Positions 1 through 10,068 of a stretch of 10,068 nt of DNA are shown here, in pieces. The translations under genes and the position numbers were made by a program. The DNA comes from Candidatus Latescibacterota bacterium (GTDB taxonomy: Bacteria; Latescibacterota; UBA2968), in assembly GCA_038279365.1 (NCBI GenBank), contig JAYODI010000015.1, positions 1-10,068 of the forward strand, read 5' to 3'. The notes under the pieces were generated by a model. The model saw nothing but the letters and a program-made list of their open reading frames with translations, made no database searches and had not been told where the DNA came from. Position 1 is the first letter of the stretch. Each line of letters starts with the position of its first letter.

Positions 1-466
1 GCACCCGCTCCATCACCGCGCGCAACACATCCATCGTGCTCAAAATGCCCACCAAGCGGCTGTCTTCCAAAACCAGCAAGCGATGAATCCGGTCGGTGTA
101 CATAATCTTGGCCACCTCTTCAATGGGTGTATCCACAGACACCGACAACACATCGGTAGACATAATATCGCGCACCTGCAGGTTCACCACATCGTCGGGC
201 ACAAGATCTTCCGAAAGCATGTCTCCCCCCGCATCATCGTGATGTTTGTGATACTCCGACTCCACCACGTGTGAATCGCCAAACACATCGCTGTGCAACA
301 ACACATCGGTGGTTGAAACCACCCCCACCAAATGGCCTGCATCATCCACCACAGGCGCACCACTGATATCGTGTTTTTGAAACAACTGTGAGAGTGCCAA
401 AACCGTCATCTTCTCATGTGCAGGAATAATCTCAGTCGTCATAATGTCTTTTGCGGTCACACTCAT
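1..466 (-). CDS. Tandem CBS-domain (Bateman module) protein; 3' end runs off the left edge of the window
   Basis: Not in the ORF track because there is no stop codon in the window. Manual translation from ATG at 466 (SD GGAG at 475-478) gives MSVTAKDIMTTEIIPAHEKMTVLALSQLFQKHDISGAPVVDDAGHLVGVVSTTDVL...LQVRDIMSTDVVGVCVDTPIEEVAKIMYTDRIHRLLVLEDSRLVGILSTMDVLRAVMERV. This has two typical CBS repeats (xDIM...PVVD..G.LVGxxSxxD) and 155 open codons. Confidence 0.93.
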   Translation of the reverse strand, partial: MSVTAKDIMTTEIIPAHEKMTVLALSQLFQKHDISGAPVVDDAGHLVGVVSTTDVLLHSDVFGDSHVVESEYHKHHDDAGGDMLSEDLVPDDVVNLQVRDIMSTDVLSVSVDTPIEEVAKIMYTDRIHRLLVLEDSRLVGILSTMDVLRAVMERV

Positions 467-514
467 TTTGTCAGCTCCGGTTTTGATAATCGATAAAAGA
501 GAACCATCAACATT

Positions 515-2701
515 TTATTTTTCTGGGCCAAAAATTAATGCCTCCGCAGAAAGGCGTTGAACTTCAATACCACCCAAGTGCGCTTTAATCTCTTCATCAC
601 GGTGCCAAGAAGCGACCGGTGTCGTATTTTTGGTATATGTTACAGAACGCTTCGCATCTTCGCCAGACACCACAAAAGACACATTTTTGAGGGGTTCACG
701 CACCGCCCAAACATGTTTTAAATAAAATTTTTGTGGGTCCGATGCATACACAAACAGCACCCCCCGTTCTGGCAAAGCGAGGTCTGCACTTTCTTCGGGT
801 TCTGTGCGAGCAAATATAAAAGCCATCTCAAAACGTTTGTTCTTTAGCGCAGACACCGTTGGTTTGTTTTCACGGTCTTTAAACATTTGAGCCAACGCTG
901 CCTCCTGAGCGGCAGCCCGTTCTTTCCGGGGTTCTACATAAGCGGTAACCTCTTGTGTTAAACTGCGCTTCAAATCTTGAATGGTCACCGGCGGAACATC
1001 TGTGCGCCGCAAATAAACCTTGGTCTCCCCATCATCGGCACCCAATGGCTGAATCGCTTCAATAGATACGCCCTGATGCACCGTGCCCCGCACGCTAACC
1101 GACAGCGAATCATCAGTTTCACCTTGTGATTCGTCAACACCTGCTTTGATGCGTATCAAATCTTCAATCTCCCGCTTGGCATCTGCAATAGTGCCTTCAA
1201 GCGCAATTTTTACTTTGGCCGCCTTGGCAAAGTCCATCAACACGGCCCGTTCGGTAGGTCCTTTTGGCGCACGTTTTTCGCCCTTCATCAACCCCTGCCA
1301 ATAGGTGCTTTTTCGGCTCCTTTTCTCCATCTCTTCCAAAAAGGCACCCAACTTGGCAACATTGTTTTCCAAGTCAACCTTCAATGTTGCAATGCTGTGA
1401 TCCAACCGTGCCTTTTGGGCATCTTCGCGCGGCATACCCCCAATGCGAATGCGTGTAAGCGCACCCCGTTCATTGCCCATATTTCCGCGCACCAAAAGCC
1501 GCCCACCAAACGTGGTCACCCCACCCACCAAATCGCCATCAATGCGCACATCGTGCCCAGCTTCCAACGAAGACATCACACACTTAGCACCAATCAAAAT
1601 CTGGCCCGCAGAAATGTTTCGGCCCGAAACCTCTTGCGCCACAAATGTCTCCTGCACTTCAATTTCAGACAGCGCCAATGTGTTTCGAATTTTGTCCTGC
1701 GCACTTTCTTCTAAGGCATCGGTTTCTCCACTCAAAAATTCTTTGGGCAAACCAGCACCAACCACCTGCCCATTGACAATCAAATGCCGTGCATGCACCT
1801 GTGTACCTTTGTCAATTGACGCAGGCATATCCGACTGGCCAATCAACACATCACCCGTGGTAAAAACCCCACCCCCTTGCCGAATCCCATTTTTGATCCG
1901 AAAATGGCTCGTGGCCACACCCGTGCGCGGCAAATTGCCCGTAGACATATTGACCTCGTCGGCCTGAACCTCTTGTACCACTTGCACCTGCCCTGCTGCA
2001 TCTTCAAAATAAACCCCTTCAATAACCGCCACAATCTTATCGCCCTGCACCTCTGTGTTTGGGCCATTTATCTTCTCCAAAGACACATCTTTGGGTGCGT
2101 CAACAGCTACCACTTCGCCCCGCACATCACTGCCTTCGGTGCCTGGCTCGGGTGGCTGGCGTGCAACCAACGTATCTCCCGGTTTCACGTGGTGTACCTT
2201 TTGACTGGCCAACTTACGATCGGCCAACATCATTTTGTGCAACGGCTCTTTATTGGCATGCAAAGCATACACCAGCTTGCCATCCACACCCGGTTGGGGC
2301 GGCTGTCCTGCTGCCACCTTACGTGTTCCCATCACGCCCGTGCCAGCCAATACCGACGCCACAAAATCATCAATGGCACCCAATACCTCTTCTTCCATAA
2401 TCCCCGAAGAAATATCCCGGCGTGAAAACTCTGCATAAGTTTGTTTGTGTATCAAATCGCGAATAAGCGGTTCCGTATCGGGGTCTTTCAAAAGCCCAGC
2501 CAAAAACGCATCATCTTGGCTCTTAATGCCCAATCCGGCAGACAACCCATTTTGAAATACGGCTGCGCGCACCAAACACGGCAGTTTTTGCCCGTTCCAA
2601 ATCAAATAGTTAGCAGGGGCCTCTTGGGCCTGTGAAGGTTTCCCTTGGTCTTTGGCCGCCTGATCCGAATCAGCAGTCGGTTTTTTTTCAGGTGATTCCA
2701 T
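515..2701 (-). CDS. FapA / DUF342 family protein (flagellar assembly protein A-like) with a long C-terminal extension
   Basis: 728-aa ORF with SD GAGG at 2707-2710. DUF342-type motifs: GQPPQPGVDG, VKPGDTLVARQPPEPGTEGSDVRGE, GPNT...DKIVAVIEG, EVNMSTGNL, beta-solenoid repeats (AGHDVRIDGDLVGG...GNMGNERGALTRIRIG), a coiled-coil insert, then VSVRGTVHQGVSI. Confidence 0.82.
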   Translation of the reverse strand: MESPEKKPTADSDQAAKDQGKPSQAQEAPANYLIWNGQKLPCLVRAAVFQNGLSAGLGIKSQDDAFLAGLLKDPDTEPLIRDLIHKQTYAEFSRRDISSGIMEEEVLGAIDDFVASVLAGTGVMGTRKVAAGQPPQPGVDGKLVYALHANKEPLHKMMLADRKLASQKVHHVKPGDTLVARQPPEPGTEGSDVRGEVVAVDAPKDVSLEKINGPNTEVQGDKIVAVIEGVYFEDAAGQVQVVQEVQADEVNMSTGNLPRTGVATSHFRIKNGIRQGGGVFTTGDVLIGQSDMPASIDKGTQVHARHLIVNGQVVGAGLPKEFLSGETDALEESAQDKIRNTLALSEIEVQETFVAQEVSGRNISAGQILIGAKCVMSSLEAGHDVRIDGDLVGGVTTFGGRLLVRGNMGNERGALTRIRIGGMPREDAQKARLDHSIATLKVDLENNVAKLGAFLEEMEKRSRKSTYWQGLMKGEKRAPKGPTERAVLMDFAKAAKVKIALEGTIADAKREIEDLIRIKAGVDESQGETDDSLSVSVRGTVHQGVSIEAIQPLGADDGETKVYLRRTDVPPVTIQDLKRSLTQEVTAYVEPRKERAAAQEAALAQMFKDRENKPTVSALKNKRFEMAFIFARTEPEESADLALPERGVLFVYASDPQKFYLKHVWAVREPLKNVSFVVSGEDAKRSVTYTKNTTPVASWHRDEEIKAHLGGIEVQRLSAEALIFGPEK

Positions 2702-2755
2702 GAAAACCTCAAAGTTAAAATCTCACCCCCCCCACACACCATCAAATACCTGCCC

Positions 2756-4009
2756 TTAATCTGCCGAAATCACCGGCGACACACTCGCCCTTTGAAACAA
2801 ATCATCAAACTCAGCACTTGCATCATCACGTATCAACTCCGAATGACACCCCCACTCATCCACAGGTTGGTTGCCCTGGCCATAGAACACCCACATTTGT
2901 CGGGTCTTGGCAAAATAAATGTTCATCCCACCCGGCCGGGTTGTTTTAATCACATGGCGTGGCAAACTGTGATCGGCCTTGTCCACACGGTATTTTTCCA
3001 ACGCAGCTTCATCCAATTCAACGCCCAAGCCTGGCGCGTCGGGCACCTGAGCATGCCCGCCCACCACAGGTATGCGCTTTGTGAGCAAACTGTGGTCATA
3101 CAACTCATGGCATGTAATGGTGGGCCACTGTGCGTGGCTCAATACCGCACTCAAATGCAACGACATCGCCGTGGTGGGGCCTGCACCCACCATTTGCAAA
3201 AAGAACGGCATATTTAACGAAGCCGCCGTTGCACCTTGTCGCATCACCGCCGACACGCCCCCCCCCAGCACCCACCCATCACACACACCGCCCATCTCCA
3301 AACCTTCTCGTGGGGGAATAATGCCATAATGGTGCGCAATGGGCGTTTCAATTTGGGTGCGCATATATCGGTTGCCCGAAGCATCGTTTCTTGGAATCGG
3401 ATCTTCAAACATTTTAATTTTGGGAAACGTGCTTTCCAACTCACGCAACACCGGAATGGCATTGGAGGCGTTGTTTAAAAACGCATTCCAATCGGCATCA
3501 ATGCGAAAATGATCGGGCGTCACGGCACTGATGCGCCGAATCGTCTCCCGCACATCAAACCAAGGCCGTGTCTTAATCTTTATACAAGTATACCCCAAAG
3601 CAACGGCTTCTTGTGCTTCGCGTTCATATTTTTCGGGCGACATGTCATGATCCCAAAACGAAATGGCACACCAGTCTCGGCATTTTTCGCCCAACAACCG
3701 ATACACAGGCACCCCCGCCAACTTGCCCGCCGCATCAAACAAGGCCATTTGCAAACCGGCCCCCAATGAATCATCCCACATCGTCTCAAACGGTGTTTTG
3801 CCCACCACGCGCTCATGCGCCTTTACCCGCCCCCACGTATAATTTTGAATCGTTTCGCCCCACCCCACAATACCCGCATCGGTTTCAACCCGCGTAATTT
3901 CCAACTCAGACCACGTATGAATCTCCGCACGCTCCATCTCAGTACGCACCCGATCCACAAACGGCACATGTAAGGTGAAACGTTCTACATCTGTGACTTT
4001 GGCAGACAT
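2756..4009 (-). CDS. Enolase superfamily enzyme (mandelate racemase / muconate lactonizing enzyme family), substrate unknown
   Basis: Preferred start is ATG at 4009 (SD AAGGA at 4017-4021), giving 417 aa; the ORF track start at 4027 is an upstream alternative. Motifs: capping domain ETDAGIVGWGE and MALFDAAGKLAGVPVYRLLG, KxK (K144/K146), metal ligands D173 (DWN) and E202 (EDP), and the C-terminal PDAPGLGVELDE. Confidence 0.93.
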   Translation of the reverse strand: MSAKVTDVERFTLHVPFVDRVRTEMERAEIHTWSELEITRVETDAGIVGWGETIQNYTWGRVKAHERVVGKTPFETMWDDSLGAGLQMALFDAAGKLAGVPVYRLLGEKCRDWCAISFWDHDMSPEKYEREAQEAVALGYTCIKIKTRPWFDVRETIRRISAVTPDHFRIDADWNAFLNNASNAIPVLRELESTFPKIKMFEDPIPRNDASGNRYMRTQIETPIAHHYGIIPPREGLEMGGVCDGWVLGGGVSAVMRQGATAASLNMPFFLQMVGAGPTTAMSLHLSAVLSHAQWPTITCHELYDHSLLTKRIPVVGGHAQVPDAPGLGVELDEAALEKYRVDKADHSLPRHVIKTTRPGGMNIYFAKTRQMWVFYGQGNQPVDEWGCHSELIRDDASAEFDDLFQRASVSPVISAD

Positions 4010-4058
4010 AAAAAAATCCTTAGGCATAAAAGATTGAAAATGAGATCAGCATGGCGTC

Positions 4059-4069
4059 AAGATATCACA
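4059..4069 (-). promoter_or_regulatory. Putative extended -10 promoter element (TGTGATATCTT) for the enolase-family gene
   Basis: Minus strand reads TGTG-A-TATCTT (TRTG plus a TAnnnT box), about 50 nt upstream of ATG 4009. The identical 11-mer lies at an equivalent distance upstream of the DUF5916 gene. Confidence 0.5.
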
Positions 4070-4131
4070 AACAACACAACTACGCCAGCATTGGAAAGAC
4101 AGACAAAATATAAAAATGATGCATTTAAAGT

Positions 4132-4160
4132 TTGTATTCCACTTGCATATACCGTATTTT
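4132..4160 (+). promoter_or_regulatory. Putative sigma70-type promoter for the cyclase pair
   Basis: TTGTAT (4132-4137), 17-nt spacer, TATTTT (4155-4160), preceded by an AT-rich tract (about 4105-4130). SD AGGAG at 4205-4209 lies 8 nt before GTG 4218. Confidence 0.4.
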
Positions 4161-4217
4161 CGCACAATCTAATTTTTGCAGATCGTTTCATAGCGATCGA
4201 TCCCAGGAGCATGACGC

Positions 4218-5942
4218 GTGAAAAATATTTTTAAAAACCTGCCCATATCCATTAAAATTTTTGGCTTGGCCACAAGCATATTGCTCTTGCAAACCATATT
4301 GAGCATTGTGACATACGATCAAGTCAGTCAAGTGACCAAAAAATTAATCGATATCACAGACTATTTGGTGCCTATTGGCGACGCAATCGTCGAAGCCAAC
4401 TTACAGACCACAGAACGCAAAATTTATATGGAACGCATCTTACGCCAATATGAGGGTGTCTCCCCAGATGAGGCCCTATTTAAAGAAGCGCTCAGTGTTT
4501 GGCAAGAACACAGCCTGCATTCTGATACAGCCATTGACCGTGCCATTGATCTGTCAAACAAAGGCCTTTCCCATATCTCCACAACCGAAGACATTGTTGC
4601 TTTTGCGCGTTTGCAACCGGCTTTAGAAAATTTGAAAGTAATGCACCAAGAACACCAGGAAATGGCGCTGGAGATTCTACAAATGCTCCAAAAAGGAGAC
4701 CGTGAATCAGCCCATTTACTCGAAACAGAATTGGAAAAAAGCGGTACAATGCTCGACATCAGAGCCCAGAGAATTCTCGACGATTTGGAATCTTTTTTGG
4801 GCCGATCCATTCGCACAAGTATCAAACACGAACAACAAGCCTTACAACTCAGTTGGGTCATGATGGGCATTGCCGCAGTCATTAGCATTGCCTTTGCTTC
4901 ACAGGTCACCATGGGTTTGATTCGACCCATCAAACAATTGGTCGCAAGCACCACAGAGGTTGAAGACGGAAATCTAAATATAAATGTGCCCGTTGTGTCC
5001 ACGGACGAAATGGGCGAGTTAACAGGCATCTTCAACAATATGGTACACGGCATTCGAGATACGCAACAACTAAAAGCCACATTTGGTCAATACGTCGATC
5101 CGCGCATTGTTGAAGAACTCCTTCGGCAAACCAGCCAAGTAGACGAACACCCCACAAGACAAAGCATGACCGTATTTTTTTCTGATGTCGCGGGTTTTAG
5201 CAGCATCAGTGAAAAACTCACGGCAGAAGGCTTGGTCAAACTCATCAACCAATATCTAACCTTGGCATCAGAACCCATTAGTAACACACATGGGGTCATC
5301 GACAAATTTATAGGGGATGCCATCGTAGCCTTTTGGGGGCCACCATTTACAGAAGCAACAGCCCACGCCACACTGGCCTGCCAAGCCGCACTGGCACAAG
5401 CCAATCAGGTTAAAAAGCTAAATCGCATGATACCCGATCTCATGGGCATCCGGCAAGGTTTGCCTCCCGTCCAAATTCGAATAGGACTTGCCACCGGAGA
5501 ATTGCTCTTGGGCAACATGGGTTCCGACACCTCCAAATCATATACCGTTATGGGAAATGCTGCAGGTTTGGCCGAACAACTCGAAAGCGCAAGCAAAGTG
5601 TATGGCACCCATATTTTAGTGAATGAAGAAACCAAGAACCAAGCAGAGGGTTTTGAATATCGTCAAATAGACACCCTGCTCAATGCCGAAAACGGACAAC
5701 CCGTGCGCATTTATGAATTGCTTTCCGAGCTTGGCGATTTAGATGAGGCAGTCAAACAGACATACAGAATATTTGAACAAGGCTTAGAAGCCTATCGCAA
5801 TCAACAATGGGATCTGGCCAGCACCCATTTTGAACACTGTGTGGCACAGCAAGATGATGCCCCATCCAAAGTATTTCTCAAACGCATTGATACATTGCGA
5901 CGCACCCCCCCAGCGGAGGATTGGCATGGCATCTGGGTTTAA
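4218..5942 (+). CDS. Membrane-bound class III adenylate cyclase, subunit A (C1-like: metal-binding Asp pair intact, catalytic Asn/Arg lost)
   Basis: 574 aa, GTG start with SD AGGAG. TM1 at about aa 12-32, helical periplasmic domain, TM2 at about aa 211-234, HAMP (RPIKQL...GNL...DEMGELTGIFNNM), transducer element FGQYVDP. Cyclase motifs FFSDVAGFS, DKFIGDAIVAFW, RIGLATG, GNMGS...YTVMGNAAGLAEQLE. TPR-like tail ends in PPAEDWHGIW. Confidence 0.95.
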   Translation: MKNIFKNLPISIKIFGLATSILLLQTILSIVTYDQVSQVTKKLIDITDYLVPIGDAIVEANLQTTERKIYMERILRQYEGVSPDEALFKEALSVWQEHSLHSDTAIDRAIDLSNKGLSHISTTEDIVAFARLQPALENLKVMHQEHQEMALEILQMLQKGDRESAHLLETELEKSGTMLDIRAQRILDDLESFLGRSIRTSIKHEQQALQLSWVMMGIAAVISIAFASQVTMGLIRPIKQLVASTTEVEDGNLNINVPVVSTDEMGELTGIFNNMVHGIRDTQQLKATFGQYVDPRIVEELLRQTSQVDEHPTRQSMTVFFSDVAGFSSISEKLTAEGLVKLINQYLTLASEPISNTHGVIDKFIGDAIVAFWGPPFTEATAHATLACQAALAQANQVKKLNRMIPDLMGIRQGLPPVQIRIGLATGELLLGNMGSDTSKSYTVMGNAAGLAEQLESASKVYGTHILVNEETKNQAEGFEYRQIDTLLNAENGQPVRIYELLSELGDLDEAVKQTYRIFEQGLEAYRNQQWDLASTHFEHCVAQQDDAPSKVFLKRIDTLRRTPPAEDWHGIWV

Positions 5943-7686
5943 AAAAATGGAAGACGAAACATTCAAAAAATCGGGCCTGTCATTGGGCGCGCGCATATTT
6001 TCCCTGTCTTTGGCACTCTTAGTCTGTCTGATGGGTGTGGTTTCATTTTCTTTATATCGACTCAGCAATGTGAGAGACGGCATTGATCGGTTAAACGACT
6101 ATTGGTTCCCATTGGTGCAAGTGGTCAGCAAAACCGACGAAGCCATCTTGACACAGCGCTTGTCTTTTGAACGCCTCATAAAATTATATGCCTTCAATCC
6201 ACAACCAGCAGAACAAATTGCCCAAGAAAAACAAACCTGGACACAACTGGGCCATCAAATTGATTCGTTGATCACATTTGCCAACCAGATCCCCCCCGCT
6301 GTTGTCCACGAAAGTGATCAAGACCATCTTTCCTCACTTGTGACCGTCTTCGAGCAAATAGCCACCCGCCATAAAACCGTTCAAAAGCAGGCCCAACAAA
6401 TCATCGCCTTACTGGCAGAAGGTCGGCAAGAGGAGGCTCAAACACACATAGAGGTTTTAGAAAAAGACGAAGGAGCCTTTGAAAGAACAATTGAAAAACG
6501 CCAACAAATTTTTGAAACAGCGTTTCGCAATGCCGCACACAATGCCGCACAACATGAATCTCAAGTTTTGCGAGTCAACGCACTTGTAACCCTGGGAACG
6601 GTTCTATTTGGTCTCTTTTTTGCCATCTTAATAGCCACAAAACTCACAGCACCCATTCGCCAACTCATGGCAAAAATGCGCGACGTTGGAAACGGCAATC
6701 TCGAGGTGCATCTACAACCCTCCTCCCGAGACGAAATTGGATTTCTAACCAACTCTTTTAACAACATGGTTGACAAGCTGAAACAAAAAAGCACCATCGA
6801 ACAAACATTTGGCAAATATGTCGATACCAGAATTGTAGAACGCTTAATGGAACGCAACGCGGAACCACAAACCGTTGGTAAAAATCAAGTCATGACCGTA
6901 CTCTTTCAAGATGTTGTTGGCTTCAAAGCCTTTGCACAGCACCTAAGCCCCGAAGACTGGCTCATCATGACCAACAAATATTTGACCCACTTGTCCAAAC
7001 CCGTAACCGATCATGGTGGCATTATCGACAAATTCATCGACACCATGGTCATGGCCTTTTGGGGCATGCCATTTACCAACGAAGAAGACCATGCCCACAA
7101 AGCCTGCGAATGTGCATTGGCACAAATAACCCTCATGCAAGAAGTACATCAGTGGATCTCTCAAGTAGACCATGCAAAAGATAAAACACCCCCTATCGCC
7201 CTCCAAATCGGGTTGGCAACAGGGCCTTTGGTTGTCGGCAATATGGGATCTGAGCAGGCAAAATCATACACGGTCATGGGCGACACCGTGAACATTGCCT
7301 CACGACTCAAAGGGGCCAACAAAGTCTATGGCACACAAGTACTCATGACCGAAGAAACCCAACAAATGGCATCAGAGCACATGATCACACGCGAAATTGA
7401 TTTGATACAAGCAGTCGGAAAAGACGAACCCGTGCGCATCTATGAATTGTTGGGACGCACCACAGATTCTTCTAATGAAACAACGCAATTAAAAACCTTG
7501 TTCCACGAAGGTGTCGTGGCCTATCGTGCACAAGATTGGCATCAGGCACAAACACATTTTGAACGCTGTCTACACCTTCGCCCCACAGACACACCATCCA
7601 AAGTCTACTTGGAACGCATCTCCGCATTCCAAAAAACCCCACCCCAAAATAATTGGGATGGGGTATGGCAACTCACCCAAAAATAA
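5926..7686 (+). CDS. Membrane-bound class III adenylate cyclase, subunit B (C2-like: Lys/Thr/Asn/Arg intact, second metal Asp lost)
   Basis: Start is either ATG 5926 (SD GGAGGA at 5915-5920, overlapping the upstream gene by 17 nt) or ATG 5947 (4 nt after its stop); the 5830 start in the track is unlikely. Same architecture as the upstream paralog: 2 TM, helical periplasmic domain, HAMP (PIRQL...GNL...RDEIGFLTNSFNNM), FGKYVDT, LFQDVVGFK, DKFIDTMVMAFW, QIGLATG, YTVMGDTVNIASRL, AVGKDEPVRIYEL, TPR-like tail ending WDGVWQLTQK. Confidence 0.95.
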   Translation: MASGFKKMEDETFKKSGLSLGARIFSLSLALLVCLMGVVSFSLYRLSNVRDGIDRLNDYWFPLVQVVSKTDEAILTQRLSFERLIKLYAFNPQPAEQIAQEKQTWTQLGHQIDSLITFANQIPPAVVHESDQDHLSSLVTVFEQIATRHKTVQKQAQQIIALLAEGRQEEAQTHIEVLEKDEGAFERTIEKRQQIFETAFRNAAHNAAQHESQVLRVNALVTLGTVLFGLFFAILIATKLTAPIRQLMAKMRDVGNGNLEVHLQPSSRDEIGFLTNSFNNMVDKLKQKSTIEQTFGKYVDTRIVERLMERNAEPQTVGKNQVMTVLFQDVVGFKAFAQHLSPEDWLIMTNKYLTHLSKPVTDHGGIIDKFIDTMVMAFWGMPFTNEEDHAHKACECALAQITLMQEVHQWISQVDHAKDKTPPIALQIGLATGPLVVGNMGSEQAKSYTVMGDTVNIASRLKGANKVYGTQVLMTEETQQMASEHMITREIDLIQAVGKDEPVRIYELLGRTTDSSNETTQLKTLFHEGVVAYRAQDWHQAQTHFERCLHLRPTDTPSKVYLERISAFQKTPPQNNWDGVWQLTQK

Positions 7687-7708
7687 ACATGCGCCCGCCT
7701 ACAAAAAA

Positions 7709-9853
7709 TTACAAACGCCAGTTATAAGCCGCTTTCACAAAAACACTTCTGCGAATGCGCCGATAGTTTGTATCTAACGTTTGTGCCAATGGATCAACCA
7801 TTTGCTTTTCATACAACGATCCATATCCCACATGACACACGGTGCCAGGAATATACGTAAAGCTCGCCAAAAAATCGGTGGTCAACTGATCGTCGGCATC
7901 GTTGTATTCTCCAATTATCCGAAACAACAAATACTTGTTGGCCTGATACGTGGCCTTGCCCCGATAAATATGAATGTTGTACACCTCACGGTTCGTGGCC
8001 CGCTCGTGAAACCGCACCCGTGTGGCGGTGCCTTCCAGCGCAAGATTGGCTGTGGGTTGAAATGTGGTTTCCATATGGATCACTTGCTCATCACCCTGAA
8101 AAGGCGCTGTCGGATCAAAATAAGGTTTGCCAGCCAACTGAAAATACAATTCCCAATGCACCTGTTTCATAGGGCGTGAAGAACTGTAAATTTCCAAACC
8201 CGAGCGGTCATATTTGGAACCTAAAAAAACCTCATTTTCACGCCGATAGGTCAGACTCACCCCCGTGAGCCGCGGCATATCAAATGACAAATAAAATTTG
8301 TGCGACGTTTCGTTCATGTCATAAAACAGATCTTTGCTAAAACGCCCCCAATAAGCCGGCCTGATCGCCTTCAAAAACGAAACCGACGGATAAAGCGTGC
8401 GTTCCATTCCCGCATTAAAAGAACGAATCCCTTGGCGCTCTACAAACCCCGTTGCCAAATCAAACTGTCGGCTCGTGGTATTAAAAGACATATCCCCTTG
8501 ATACACATTGGTTCGATACCGAAACACCACATCCGACGCATAGCCCTTTACAACAGACCCACCACCATTTTGTATCCGACTGCCCATCATATCAAACTGA
8601 AACGATGTGGTTTTTGTCAGCCGAAAACGTGTGTCCACACCGCCTGCACGGCTATAATCGGTACCCAATTCGCGGCAGGTCAACACCCCACCGACATAAC
8701 TGTCATCATTTAATAATTTTTTATAACGCACAATACCAAACTGCGCATTTTCAGTTCGGTTTTCCAACACCTTAGGCGACCGATCCAGCGCACCCAACAC
8801 CGAAATCACATGCGTTTTACCCGGTCGCCCGGTGAGCTTCAGCCCCACAACAGGGTCCACAATTTTGCGCGTATGAATCACCACCGGCACATGGCTGTTG
8901 TTGTAACCGCCAACCCCCGAAATGAATAAATGTTCTGTGCCCTCAAGAAAAAAGGAACGCTTTTCATCGTAAATAACCGCAGAACGCTGGTTAAACTCGA
9001 CTTGTGAAGCGTCAGCTTCCACCTGATTAAAATCGGGCGAAACGGTGGCATCGAGTAAAAAAGTAGACGACAAACCCACTTTGGCCGTCAACCCAACATT
9101 GGGGTCTTGGTCGGTCACGCCCCGCGCATCGGTATAGGCATGTGTCACAGAAGGCAAAAACTCAAGCGTGCGCCGATAGGCCAAGTTGTGATAATCCACA
9201 GTTGCAAACTGACTCAGCACCGTGCCCTTATCTCGGCTCACCGCCGGATAGGCATCCCACTCAGACAGCCGCACAATGCGCCTCCGAAACCCAATGCCCA
9301 TGGTTACCACATCACCCACAGGATAACGAATACTTTTAAGTGGAATACGGATCTCCACATCATATCCCTTATCGTGCCGAACACCTGCCGCATACCACAC
9401 AAAGTCTTCCGACGCCTCCCAATCAAATTTATCATCGGCCACCACATCTTCTTGCACACCCAAAGGGTTCACCATAAACCCAACCGCCGATTGTTGGTCG
9501 TGATACAAATCCAAAAAAACACCCACCTTGTCTTCGGTGTTGATATTGTCGCGTTTGGTCATAGATGCCGTAATATTCTGAGGGTGAGAATCCAAAAACC
9601 GAAATGCAAAGTAAAGATGATCATCGTCATAGGCCGCATAGGCCACCGTTCGTTCAGAGGCAGGTTGCCCACTCACCGGATCGGTCGTTACAAAAGCGTC
9701 ATAAACCTTGGTCTGTTGCCAAACCGCATCGTCCAATCGCCCATCAATTTGTGGTGCGATATCTGTGCGCAATGCTTCAATCTCTTCGGCCACCACCGGG
9801 TGCACACAAACAAATAGGACAAGAAAAAAAACCAAAAATCTTCGAGATATCAT
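7709..9853 (-). CDS. Exported CBM9-like (DOMON-like) domain + DUF5916 putative outer-membrane beta-barrel protein
   Basis: Preferred start is ATG 9853 (714 aa), which gives a Sec signal peptide MISRRFLVFFLVLFVCVHPVVA|EE; ATG 9874 is an alternative. CBM9-like motifs APQIDGRLDDAVW, AYDDDHLYFAF and YDVEIRIPLKSIRY. DUF5916-type motif LDATVSPDFNQVEAD...EKRSFFLEG. Amphipathic beta strands follow, with a C-terminal beta-signal-like VFVKAAYNWRL. Confidence 0.87.
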   Translation of the reverse strand: MISRRFLVFFLVLFVCVHPVVAEEIEALRTDIAPQIDGRLDDAVWQQTKVYDAFVTTDPVSGQPASERTVAYAAYDDDHLYFAFRFLDSHPQNITASMTKRDNINTEDKVGVFLDLYHDQQSAVGFMVNPLGVQEDVVADDKFDWEASEDFVWYAAGVRHDKGYDVEIRIPLKSIRYPVGDVVTMGIGFRRRIVRLSEWDAYPAVSRDKGTVLSQFATVDYHNLAYRRTLEFLPSVTHAYTDARGVTDQDPNVGLTAKVGLSSTFLLDATVSPDFNQVEADASQVEFNQRSAVIYDEKRSFFLEGTEHLFISGVGGYNNSHVPVVIHTRKIVDPVVGLKLTGRPGKTHVISVLGALDRSPKVLENRTENAQFGIVRYKKLLNDDSYVGGVLTCRELGTDYSRAGGVDTRFRLTKTTSFQFDMMGSRIQNGGGSVVKGYASDVVFRYRTNVYQGDMSFNTTSRQFDLATGFVERQGIRSFNAGMERTLYPSVSFLKAIRPAYWGRFSKDLFYDMNETSHKFYLSFDMPRLTGVSLTYRRENEVFLGSKYDRSGLEIYSSSRPMKQVHWELYFQLAGKPYFDPTAPFQGDEQVIHMETTFQPTANLALEGTATRVRFHERATNREVYNIHIYRGKATYQANKYLLFRIIGEYNDADDQLTTDFLASFTYIPGTVCHVGYGSLYEKQMVDPLAQTLDTNYRRIRRSVFVKAAYNWRL

Positions 9854-9900
9854 AGGAAGCACAAACCCATCCATTAAGTAAGTTGTAGCGCACAATAGCT

Positions 9901-9915
9901 TGTGAAGATATCACA
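9901..9915 (-). promoter_or_regulatory. Putative extended -10 element (TGTGATATCTT, 9905-9915) embedded in a TGTGA-N5-TCACA inverted repeat
   Basis: Plus strand reads TGTGA-AGATA-TCACA. The minus-strand TGTGATATCTT lies about 52 nt upstream of ATG 9853, with a possible -35 TTCAAA 16 nt further upstream. Confidence 0.45.
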
Positions 9916-9937
9916 CTTCGGGCGTATTTGAATAAAA

Positions 9938-10037
9938 AGCGATCAGCGATCAGCATTCAGCCCACCCATCCTTGCCTTTGGGTTATGGTTTAAGCTGATT
10001 GCTGATTGCTGATTGCTGACTGCTGACTGCTGATTGC
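9938..10037. repeat. Inverted heptamer tandem-repeat element: (RWTCAGC)3 - 32-nt spacer - (GCTGAYT)6
   Basis: Left arm is AGC GATCAGC GATCAGC ATTCAGC (9938-9961). Right arm is GCTGATT x3, GCTGACT x2, GCTGATT, GC (9994-10037). The arms are near reverse complements of each other. Confidence 0.9.
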
Positions 10038-10068
10038 CAGTAGATTCGATAAACGCACAAATGATATT

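Follow-up and report, generated by a model that had tools for sequence, protein, structure and literature searches.

Introduction

Class III nucleotide cyclases form their active sites across a dimer interface, as is known from the mammalian C1/C2 and from bacterial structures. One monomer gives two metal-binding Asp residues, the P-loop and a phosphate-binding Arg, and the opposite monomer adds the pair that specifies the base, the Asn and Arg of the transition state and a loop Lys. The assignment of the mammalian C1 and C2 residues to one complete site reportedly goes back to the structures of Tesmer and Sprang, and class IIIb is said, after Linder and Schultz, to be defined by the substrate-specifying Lys plus a Thr in place of Asp. 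Rv1900c is said to be an asymmetric homodimer encoded by one gene, and to be a half-of-sites class III cyclase outside animals. The present study deals with two adjacent genes, here called A and B, which occupy positions 4,218 to 7,686 in a stretch of 10,068 nucleotides from a Candidatus Latescibacterota bacterium (assembly GCA_038279365.1, contig JAYODI010000015.1, positions 1 to 10,068 of the forward strand); this whole stretch is called the window. Both genes code for receptor-type class III cyclases, and the catalytic residues are divided between them. It is likely that A and B together make up a heterodimeric HAMP receptor adenylate cyclase of class IIIb, bound to the membrane and with one ATP site.

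Two reviews (PMC9552081, PMC5699072) present the bacterial class III cyclases as homodimeric enzymes with two equivalent sites and assign the heterodimer to eukaryotes. The one-site heterodimer is viewed there as a eukaryotic invention after gene duplication and fusion. In soluble guanylate cyclase, one active site is formed from two subunits and the beta homodimer is inactive, according to a published account (PMC3591389). It has been described that the D300A and R376A mutants of Rv1625c are each inactive and that cyclase activity is regained when they are co-expressed (PMC4821796). For Cya2, a single active site is reported as sufficient (PMC6005667). A full-text literature search found no description of natural two-gene heterodimeric bacterial class III cyclases, a prior mention being possible.

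Results

Catalytic residues of A and B

The two genes and their domains, all on the forward strand, are as follows (aa, amino acids; TM, transmembrane segment).

4218..5942 (+): gene A, 574 aa, GTG start, putative 'C1-like' receptor cyclase subunit (open reading frame)
4245..4913 (+): A TM1 (aa 10-32), periplasmic helical sensor (aa 33-207) and TM2 (aa 208-232), predicted by hydropathy
4917..5060 (+): A HAMP domain, aa 234-281 (PF00672, E 4.8e-12)
5154..5732 (+): A class III cyclase domain, aa 313-505 (PF00211)
5926..7686 (+): gene B, 586 aa, putative 'C2-like' receptor cyclase subunit (open reading frame; public gene call P0121)
6631..6786 (+): B HAMP domain, aa 236-287 of the 586-aa protein (PF00672, E 4.5e-15)
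6886..7458 (+): B class III cyclase domain (PF00211)

Equivalence to the canonical residues was set by HMMER alignment to the solved class IIIb enzymes CyaB (3r5g) and CyaC (1wc0/1wc1); the match to CyaB has E 7.5e-30 for A and 2.6e-26 for B. It was found that A retains D323 (nucleotide 5184), GFS at 326-328, K363, D367 (5316), R421 (5478) and T443, in the motifs FSD(323)VAGFS, DK(363)FIGD(367) and IR(421)IG. Asn is changed to G450 (5565), Arg to Q454 (5577) and the loop GK to E491 N492 (5688-5693). The CyaB segment GREVNLASRLES corresponds to GNAAG(450)LAEQ(454)LES in A, and AENG stands in A where B and the canonical relatives have the loop Gly-Lys.

Residues of B are numbered in two ways, in a 618-aa protein counted from TTG 5830 and in the 586-aa protein counted from ATG 5926. 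In the longer numbering B retains D361, K401 (7030), T481 (7270), N488 (7291), R492 (7303) and G530 K531 (7417-7422), which are D329, K369, T449, N456, R460 and G498 K499 in the shorter one. The changes in B are GFK with K366 (6925), DKFIDT with T405 (7042), Q459 (7204) and RLK with K494 (7309); in the 586-aa protein they read GFS to GFK334, GD to D372 T373, Arg to Q427 and RLE to RLK462. Its motifs, in 618-aa numbering, are FQD(361)VVGFK, DK(401)FID(404)T(405), LQ(459)IG, YT(481)VMGDTVN(488)IASR(492)LK(494) and VGK(531)D.

The alignment of A with B is gap-free from the first Asp through the Arg position. In the alignments, the Lys and Thr of CyaB and CyaC stand opposite K363/T443 of A and K369/T449 of B, on which basis both proteins can be assigned to class IIIb. 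A is without the Asn, the Arg and the GK loop, and B is without the second Asp and the phosphate Arg, so that neither chain carries the full catalytic set of a self-sufficient homodimeric enzyme. Jointly, A and B hold the complete set. A reciprocal split of the catalytic residues between two homologous domains, as in the mammalian enzymes, had been put forward in a preliminary description of this DNA, and both the residue mapping and the family survey given below agree with it. All residue identities and nucleotide coordinates in that description were recomputed and are correct, and the absence of indels between the first Asp and the Arg is borne out by the alignment. Both cyclase open reading frames are likewise present as described, and in each of them the HAMP and class III cyclase domains score above the Pfam cut-offs; the PF00211 scores are 56.1 bits for A and 63.7 bits for B against a cut-off of 21.9.

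Domain plan and structure models

A and B share one plan, in which TM1 and TM2 enclose a periplasmic four-helix-bundle sensor, and TM2 is followed in order by HAMP, a short helical linker, the cyclase domain and a three-helix C-terminal domain. The hydropathy scan gave two hydrophobic segments in A and two in B, and the AlphaFold2 models of both proteins have a helical bundle between the TM segments; in the TM and sensor part of the A model the helices are H10-79, H85-119, H123-158 and H162-249. Both proteins have the TM, sensor, TM, HAMP and cyclase architecture of HAMP-linked receptor cyclases. The predicted local distance difference test (pLDDT) score of the models is 79 for A and 78.9 for B, and the modelled cyclase domain of A superposes on Pseudomonas aeruginosa CyaB (3r5g) with a TM-score of 0.88. 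The two proteins are 33% identical over 571 residues (E 2e-110), and by region the identity is 20% in the sensor, 40% in HAMP and 44% in the cyclase domain. No H-NOX or PAS sensor domain was found by Pfam in A or B.

Reciprocal loss in the protein family

Homolog searches gave 569 proteins for A and 948 for B at E <= 1e-30 among 8000 candidates scored. The survey set was made of the best 120 of A's 569 and the best 120 of B's 948, which are 235 distinct proteins, plus A and B themselves (n=237). A protein was called A-type when both Asp and the phosphate Arg are present and the other half is incomplete, and B-type when Lys, Thr, Asn and Arg are present and the other half is incomplete. By these definitions 99 of the 237 proteins were A-type, 83 were B-type and 55 were fully canonical; losses on both sides were seen in 0 of the 237.

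Because the type labels are defined by the catalytic residues, the 16 catalytic and loop columns were left out when a FastTree phylogeny was built on the columns from HAMP to the C-terminus. One branch (support 99) set apart all 99 A-type rows and a second one (support 100) all 83 B-type rows, with two label changes across the whole tree. In an outgroup-rooted IQ-TREE phylogeny of 79 rows, with the catalytic columns kept, the A-type and the B-type proteins each formed a clade at 97. It had been argued in the preliminary description that the losses sort by the side of the interface from which a residue acts, unlike random decay. Since the split recurs across two whole protein clades, it is far beyond chance, and as judged from these alignments the reciprocal loss is a property of the family and not of local decay.

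Among the 150 best representatives at 50% identity from 1.84 billion proteins, scripted classification gave 15 B-type and 11 A-type proteins, and 4 of the 15 B-type labels belong to proteins which depart from canonical at the phosphate Arg column only. In four of these representatives (P0353, P0357, P0361 and P0370) the losses fall outside both the A and the B pattern, as with the first Asp changed to Asn together with Arg to Gly or Lys to Asn, which indicates that other kinds of degenerate HAMP cyclases exist.

Conserved and drifting residues

Conservation was counted in 98 A-type, 82 B-type and 55 canonical proteins, and in the last group all catalytic residues are intact (55/55). In the A clade the half which A would contribute is invariant: both Asp, the Arg and GF(S/T) are present in 98 of 98, as is the Glu of RLE. 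The Asn position of the same clade is occupied by Gln (39), Glu (13), Lys (12), Gly (10) and others, and its Lys is replaced in 39 of 98 proteins, by Gln in 36 and by Cys in 3. All 82 B-type proteins carry the Lys, Thr, Asn and Arg together with the loop Gly, and a Lys or Arg in the loop is equally constant (82 of 82). Their second Asp position is mostly taken by Thr (74 proteins), with Ser and Pro in 3 each and Ala and Asp in 1 each. Of the 82, 18 are without the first Asp, 28 retain the phosphate Arg and 28 have the shifted Asp seen in DKFIDT, and the residue following GF is variable. RLE is changed to RLK in 73 of the 82 B-type proteins. It should be noted here that several of the conserved features stand outside the definition of the types, namely the loop Gly, the loop Lys/Arg and RLK in B, and GF(S/T) and the Glu of RLE in A. 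The preliminary description had predicted that mutation of the A Lys or of the B first Asp would be tolerated; natural variation mirrors this prediction, and the residues predicted as essential are invariant in their respective clades.

Two charge changes lie in the Asn/Arg helix. In A, Glu replaces Ser at aa 453 (nucleotides 5574-5576), just ahead of the lost Arg, in 93% of A-type proteins, and in B, Lys replaces the Glu of RLE at aa 462 of the 586-aa protein (7309-7311) in 89% of B-type proteins. These changes may steer hetero-pairing or may compensate at the active site.

Adjacency and distribution of the pair

The gene pair was followed with a B-type alignment scan of one genome per species, which gave 80 loci classified by script. 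A B-type gene was present in 18 of the 80, and in 13 of these 18 an intact A-type gene is directly adjacent on the same strand. At one further locus (L051) the adjoining A-type gene is cut by the contig end. At another, in Spirulina sp. 06S082 (L048:2974-4693), an A-type-like gene lies in two overlapping frames beside an intact B-type gene, and, at a contig coverage of ~4x, the double frame could reflect an error in sequencing or a true frameshift. Three B-type loci (L029, L034 and L053) are without flank. An A-type neighbour was, in sum, observed in 15 of the 15 B-type loci with readable flanks. In the 62 loci without a B-type gene, an A-type gene was found in 0, the genes there being canonical or near-canonical, and in the genomes found with an A-type gene, B is adjacent in 5 of 5. 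The two types co-occur and lie side by side, as expected of an obligate A:B heterodimer.

Tandem orthologs with the same substitutions had been asked for in the preliminary description, where it was also held that orthologs which occur singly or without the reciprocal pattern would speak against its proposal. A genome of the same genus (G001) has A at 73% identity followed by B, with the same substitutions as in the window, and together with the 15 of 15 testable B-type loci this outcome is favourable to the proposal. In a second genome (G002) B lies at the contig edge. Two adjacent and fully canonical paralogs, 66% identical and with one codon-sized gap between them, were seen in a Bryobacteraceae metagenome-assembled genome (MAG; L072:1071-4586), at one of the 62 loci that have no B-type gene. 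This tandem could be the state before division of the active site, or a two-site heterodimer.

The order is A then B in the window, in G001 and in a Planctomycetota MAG (L030), and B then A in 12 cyanobacterial loci, including those of Leptolyngbya sp. PCC 7375 (L037) and Adonisia turfae (L039). By first-start open reading frames, 16-103 nucleotides separate A and B in the 11 paired loci listed. A conserved third gene, such as one for a receptor of cyclic AMP (cAMP), was looked for with Pfam in the 33 flanking open reading frames of 11 paired loci, and nothing common was found. The distance matrices of A and B over 15 pairs are strongly correlated (Mantel r 0.96), with 0 of 5000 permutations as high.

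The distribution of the pair is patchy. Of 301 cyanobacterial genomes, 2 match and both have an adjacent B then A pair (4 candidates were scored per genome). The pair occurs in 1 of 401 Planctomycetota genomes, the other match there being a canonical gene, and the window's own phylum has 3 matching genomes in 168, all of the window's genus. The source names among the listed matches also include Desulfococcaceae, SAR324, Spirochaetes, Gemmatimonadetes and Tectomicrobia. Such a distribution would fit a mobile two-gene module. A metagenome scan with the A-type alignment gave 80 loci, which were 33 canonical, 46 'other' and 1 partial plus canonical; 44 of the 46 'other' loci depart from canonical at the phosphate-Arg column only. 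Neither A-type nor B-type genes were present in these 80 loci, and the scan is thus uninformative on solitary A-type genes.

Gene boundaries and neighbouring genes

The following further features were placed in the window.

4206..4210 (+): Shine-Dalgarno-like AGGAG, 7 nucleotides ahead of the GTG start of gene A (sequence read directly)
5915..5919 (+): GGAGG, putative ribosome-binding site of gene B, within the 3' end of gene A (sequence read directly)
2-466 (-): tandem-CBS protein, upstream
515-2701 (-): FapA-family protein, 728 aa (FapA_N and beta-solenoid), upstream
2756-4027 (-): enolase-superfamily (MR/MLE) gene, upstream of the pair (Pfam)
7709-9895 (-): DUF5916/CBM9 gene, downstream of the pair (Pfam)

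The open reading frame of gene B counted from its first TTG is 5830-7686 (+), 618 aa. The start is most likely ATG 5926, giving 586 aa, since GGAGG lies at 5915-5919 and the same start is used in P0121, the public gene call (586 aa) for a protein identical to B of the window. From this ATG, gene B overlaps the stop codon TAA of gene A (5940-5942) by 17 nucleotides. No terminator-like site on the + strand was found between the two genes by a terminator scan, and a promoter scan gave 6 sites, against 6.1 expected, and is thus uninformative. One operon for A and B is the best explanation of this layout. In a marsh metatranscriptome, two contigs of 175 nucleotides lie within gene B, which is too little for a claim of transcription or co-transcription.

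The assembly of the pair is reproduced elsewhere. A contig of 9953 nucleotides from an independent study spans 4100-7800 with 16 substitutions and zero indels, a contig from a second run bridges the A/B junction, and none of the 20 variants listed from independent assemblies touches a catalytic residue. Between the window and G001, the ratio of nonsynonymous to synonymous substitution rates (dN/dS) is 0.14 for A and 0.20 for B, which are rough values since dS is near 1. Both genes are, by these comparisons, under purifying selection.

The last 50 nucleotides of the B coding sequence contain, on the - strand (7636-7664), a strong terminator-like hairpin of the convergent DUF5916/CBM9 gene (9895-7709, - strand), with a stem of 12 pairs and a T run behind it. 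Both flanking genes, MR/MLE and DUF5916/CBM9, hold their position around the pair in G001. The downstream DUF5916/CBM9 gene is retained in G002, and neither of the two was found next to the pair in the loci of other phyla. For the FapA-family and tandem-CBS genes further upstream, no link to the cyclases was seen.

Discussion

The data presented here can be read as the division of one active site between two bacterial genes. In the proposed A:B dimer, A would donate the two metal Asp, GFS and the phosphate Arg, and B would donate the adenine-specifying Lys and Thr along with the Asn and Arg of the transition state and the GK loop. One complete ATP-specific site would then be made of D323, D367 and R421 of A with K369, T449, N456, R460 and K499 of B (586-aa numbering), and the second pocket would be degenerate. 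The A:A and B:B dimers would have no complete site and should be inactive or nearly so. ATP is taken as the substrate because Lys plus Thr is the class IIIb signature for ATP, and the product is predicted to be cAMP. Two unlike periplasmic sensors could be signalling to the single site through a mixed HAMP bundle. The binding of A to B, the inactivity of the homodimers and the cAMP product are predictions of this scheme.

Some of the observations weigh against the proposed heterodimer. B keeps the first metal Asp and has in addition an Asp one position ahead of the lost one (DKFIDT). With D329 and the shifted Asp both present in this B, a B:B dimer may have residual metal binding and activity. 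Asn is kept in 3 of the 98 A-type proteins and Arg in 10 of them. In the IQ-TREE phylogeny both clades form a polytomy with the canonical relatives, and A and B may or may not be sisters from one duplication. The Mantel correlation shows joint inheritance, not necessarily co-adaptation. A weak search found no fused A-B protein among 15 longer relatives, each of which has one cyclase domain with other sensors, and it gives no Rosetta-stone support. Finally, the genome (G000) has four further cyclase domains (L001-L004, on contigs C172, C41, C6 and C15), one of them canonical and of the same subclass; this cyclase, on C172, is a 997-aa open frame, fully canonical and conserved in related genera.

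These last domains could be other partners. A and B could each pair with other complete cyclases as modulating subunits, and a dimer of A or B with a canonical partner would likewise have one complete site. The other cyclase genes are, however, unlinked and their sensor architectures are different, whereas A and B are inherited jointly and lie side by side across phyla, where no further neighbour is conserved, and share the TM, HAMP and C-terminal plan which a common membrane dimer would need. That A:B is not the main complex seems very improbable on this evidence. It could also be that A and B are ordinary tandem paralogs, which form separate homodimers of reduced or altered activity, for instance with D329 and the shifted D372 as the metal ligands of B. 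The two Asp residues kept by B would suit such an arrangement, and tandem canonical paralogs are known from L072, where two complete genes are 66% identical. But with the shifted Asp in 28 and the first Asp absent in 18 of 82 B-type proteins, metal binding is not conserved in B, and loss of the equivalent Asp or Arg inactivates Rv1625c, as has been described (PMC4821796). Separate homodimers would moreover leave the adjacency of A in 15 of 15 testable loci unexplained, and we consider them quite improbable.

A further alternative is that both proteins are non-catalytic pseudo-cyclases, receptors or scaffolds which only dimerise or bind nucleotide and make no cAMP. Each protein alone is indeed without a canonical set of catalytic residues. 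Functionless decay would nevertheless not keep complementary halves invariant in two clades, with no surveyed protein showing losses on both sides. Within each clade the half that would be used is invariant and the unused half drifts, as is seen from the 39 of 98 A-type proteins with Gln or Cys in place of Lys and from the 18 of 82 B-type proteins without the first Asp, and the full catalytic set is present across A and B. A purely non-catalytic role is very improbable in our view. The heterodimer with one site shared by A and B would account for these patterns together with the adjacency of the genes.

A wider reading may be put forward tentatively, and it is doubtful that all of it would hold. 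The pair would be an old, horizontally mobile two-gene module and an obligate asymmetric receptor cyclase which arose independently of eukaryotes. The single site would be driven by the two sensors (20% identity), acting jointly as a heteromeric ligand site or as an AND gate. The degenerate pocket, with K363/T443 of A facing D329 of B, would be kept as an allosteric site for a nucleotide or ligand, like the forskolin site of animals, and the charges of Glu453 (A) and Lys462 (B) might enforce the hetero-pairing.

If the proposal is true, division of the active site between two genes has evolved in bacteria too, and without fusion. The pair would then provide a simple, genetically tractable model for asymmetric cyclase dimers, including in cultured strains such as Leptolyngbya sp. 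PCC 7375, in which the assembly and regulation of the dimer, the role of the degenerate pocket and the control of one site by two unlike sensors could be studied. It is also a warning for annotation, as about a dozen clusters of each type at 50% identity, among the 150 best representatives, now carry plain names such as adenylate/guanylate cyclase or HAMP protein.

Comparison with known systems

The closest solved relatives by sequence and fold are CyaB of P. aeruginosa (3r5g) and CyaC of Spirulina (1wc0/1wc1), which have the same Lys plus Thr pair. They differ in having the full catalytic set on each chain, as two-site homodimers with other sensor domains. The nearest neighbours in the tree are canonical relatives with a four-helix-bundle sensor, HAMP and cyclase domain, for example from Thiobacillus and Verrucomicrobiota MAGs, which have the same length and plan at 34-40% identity. 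In these the catalytic residues are intact, and the genes are single in 55 loci. Heterodimeric class III cyclases outside animals, as proposed here for A:B, are the chytrid RGC/NeoR proteins, which are reportedly fungal rhodopsin fusions making cyclic GMP.

Of engineered systems, the mutant pair of Rv1625c is the most similar. D300A resembles B in the loss of the second metal Asp, and R376A resembles A in the loss of the transition-state Arg. That pair is a laboratory construct from a class IIIa homodimeric enzyme with six TM helices, whereas A and B are natural, conserved and encoded by two diverged genes; by analogy, A and B can be regarded as its natural counterpart.

Among the eukaryotic enzymes, the mammalian membrane adenylyl cyclases (AC; AC5 C1 with AC2 C2) have one complete site and one degenerate pocket, as is predicted for A:B. 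In a PDB search the mammalian adenylyl cyclase matches of A were C1 chains or regions (1cjk_A, 1azs_A, 1cs4_A; AC5 466-607; AC8 413-544), and B matched IIC2 chains (1azs_B, 1cul_B, 1ab8_A) and C2 stretches of AC5 and AC9, together with one C1-region stretch (AC8 414-544). The mammalian enzymes are of class IIIa, under G-protein control and with Lys plus Asp specificity, and have their 2x6 TM helices in one polypeptide, whereas the A/B pair has two genes, 2 TM helices in each protein, periplasmic sensors with HAMP, and Lys plus Thr of class IIIb. Without C1 and C2 on one chain and two six-TM bundles, the pair does not belong to the mammalian membrane adenylyl cyclases, and since both clades sit among bacterial HAMP cyclases its origin would be independent of them. 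Soluble guanylate cyclase alpha/beta is alike in having two separately encoded homologous subunits with one active and one pseudosymmetric site, but it is eukaryotic, cytosolic and GTP-specific, with H-NOX/PAS sensors. A and B have Lys and Thr at the specificity positions in place of a Glu/Cys pair, and are not soluble guanylate cyclases. The pair, well supported by comparative evidence, thus appears mechanistically like mammalian C1/C2 and soluble guanylate cyclase, and is a member of neither.

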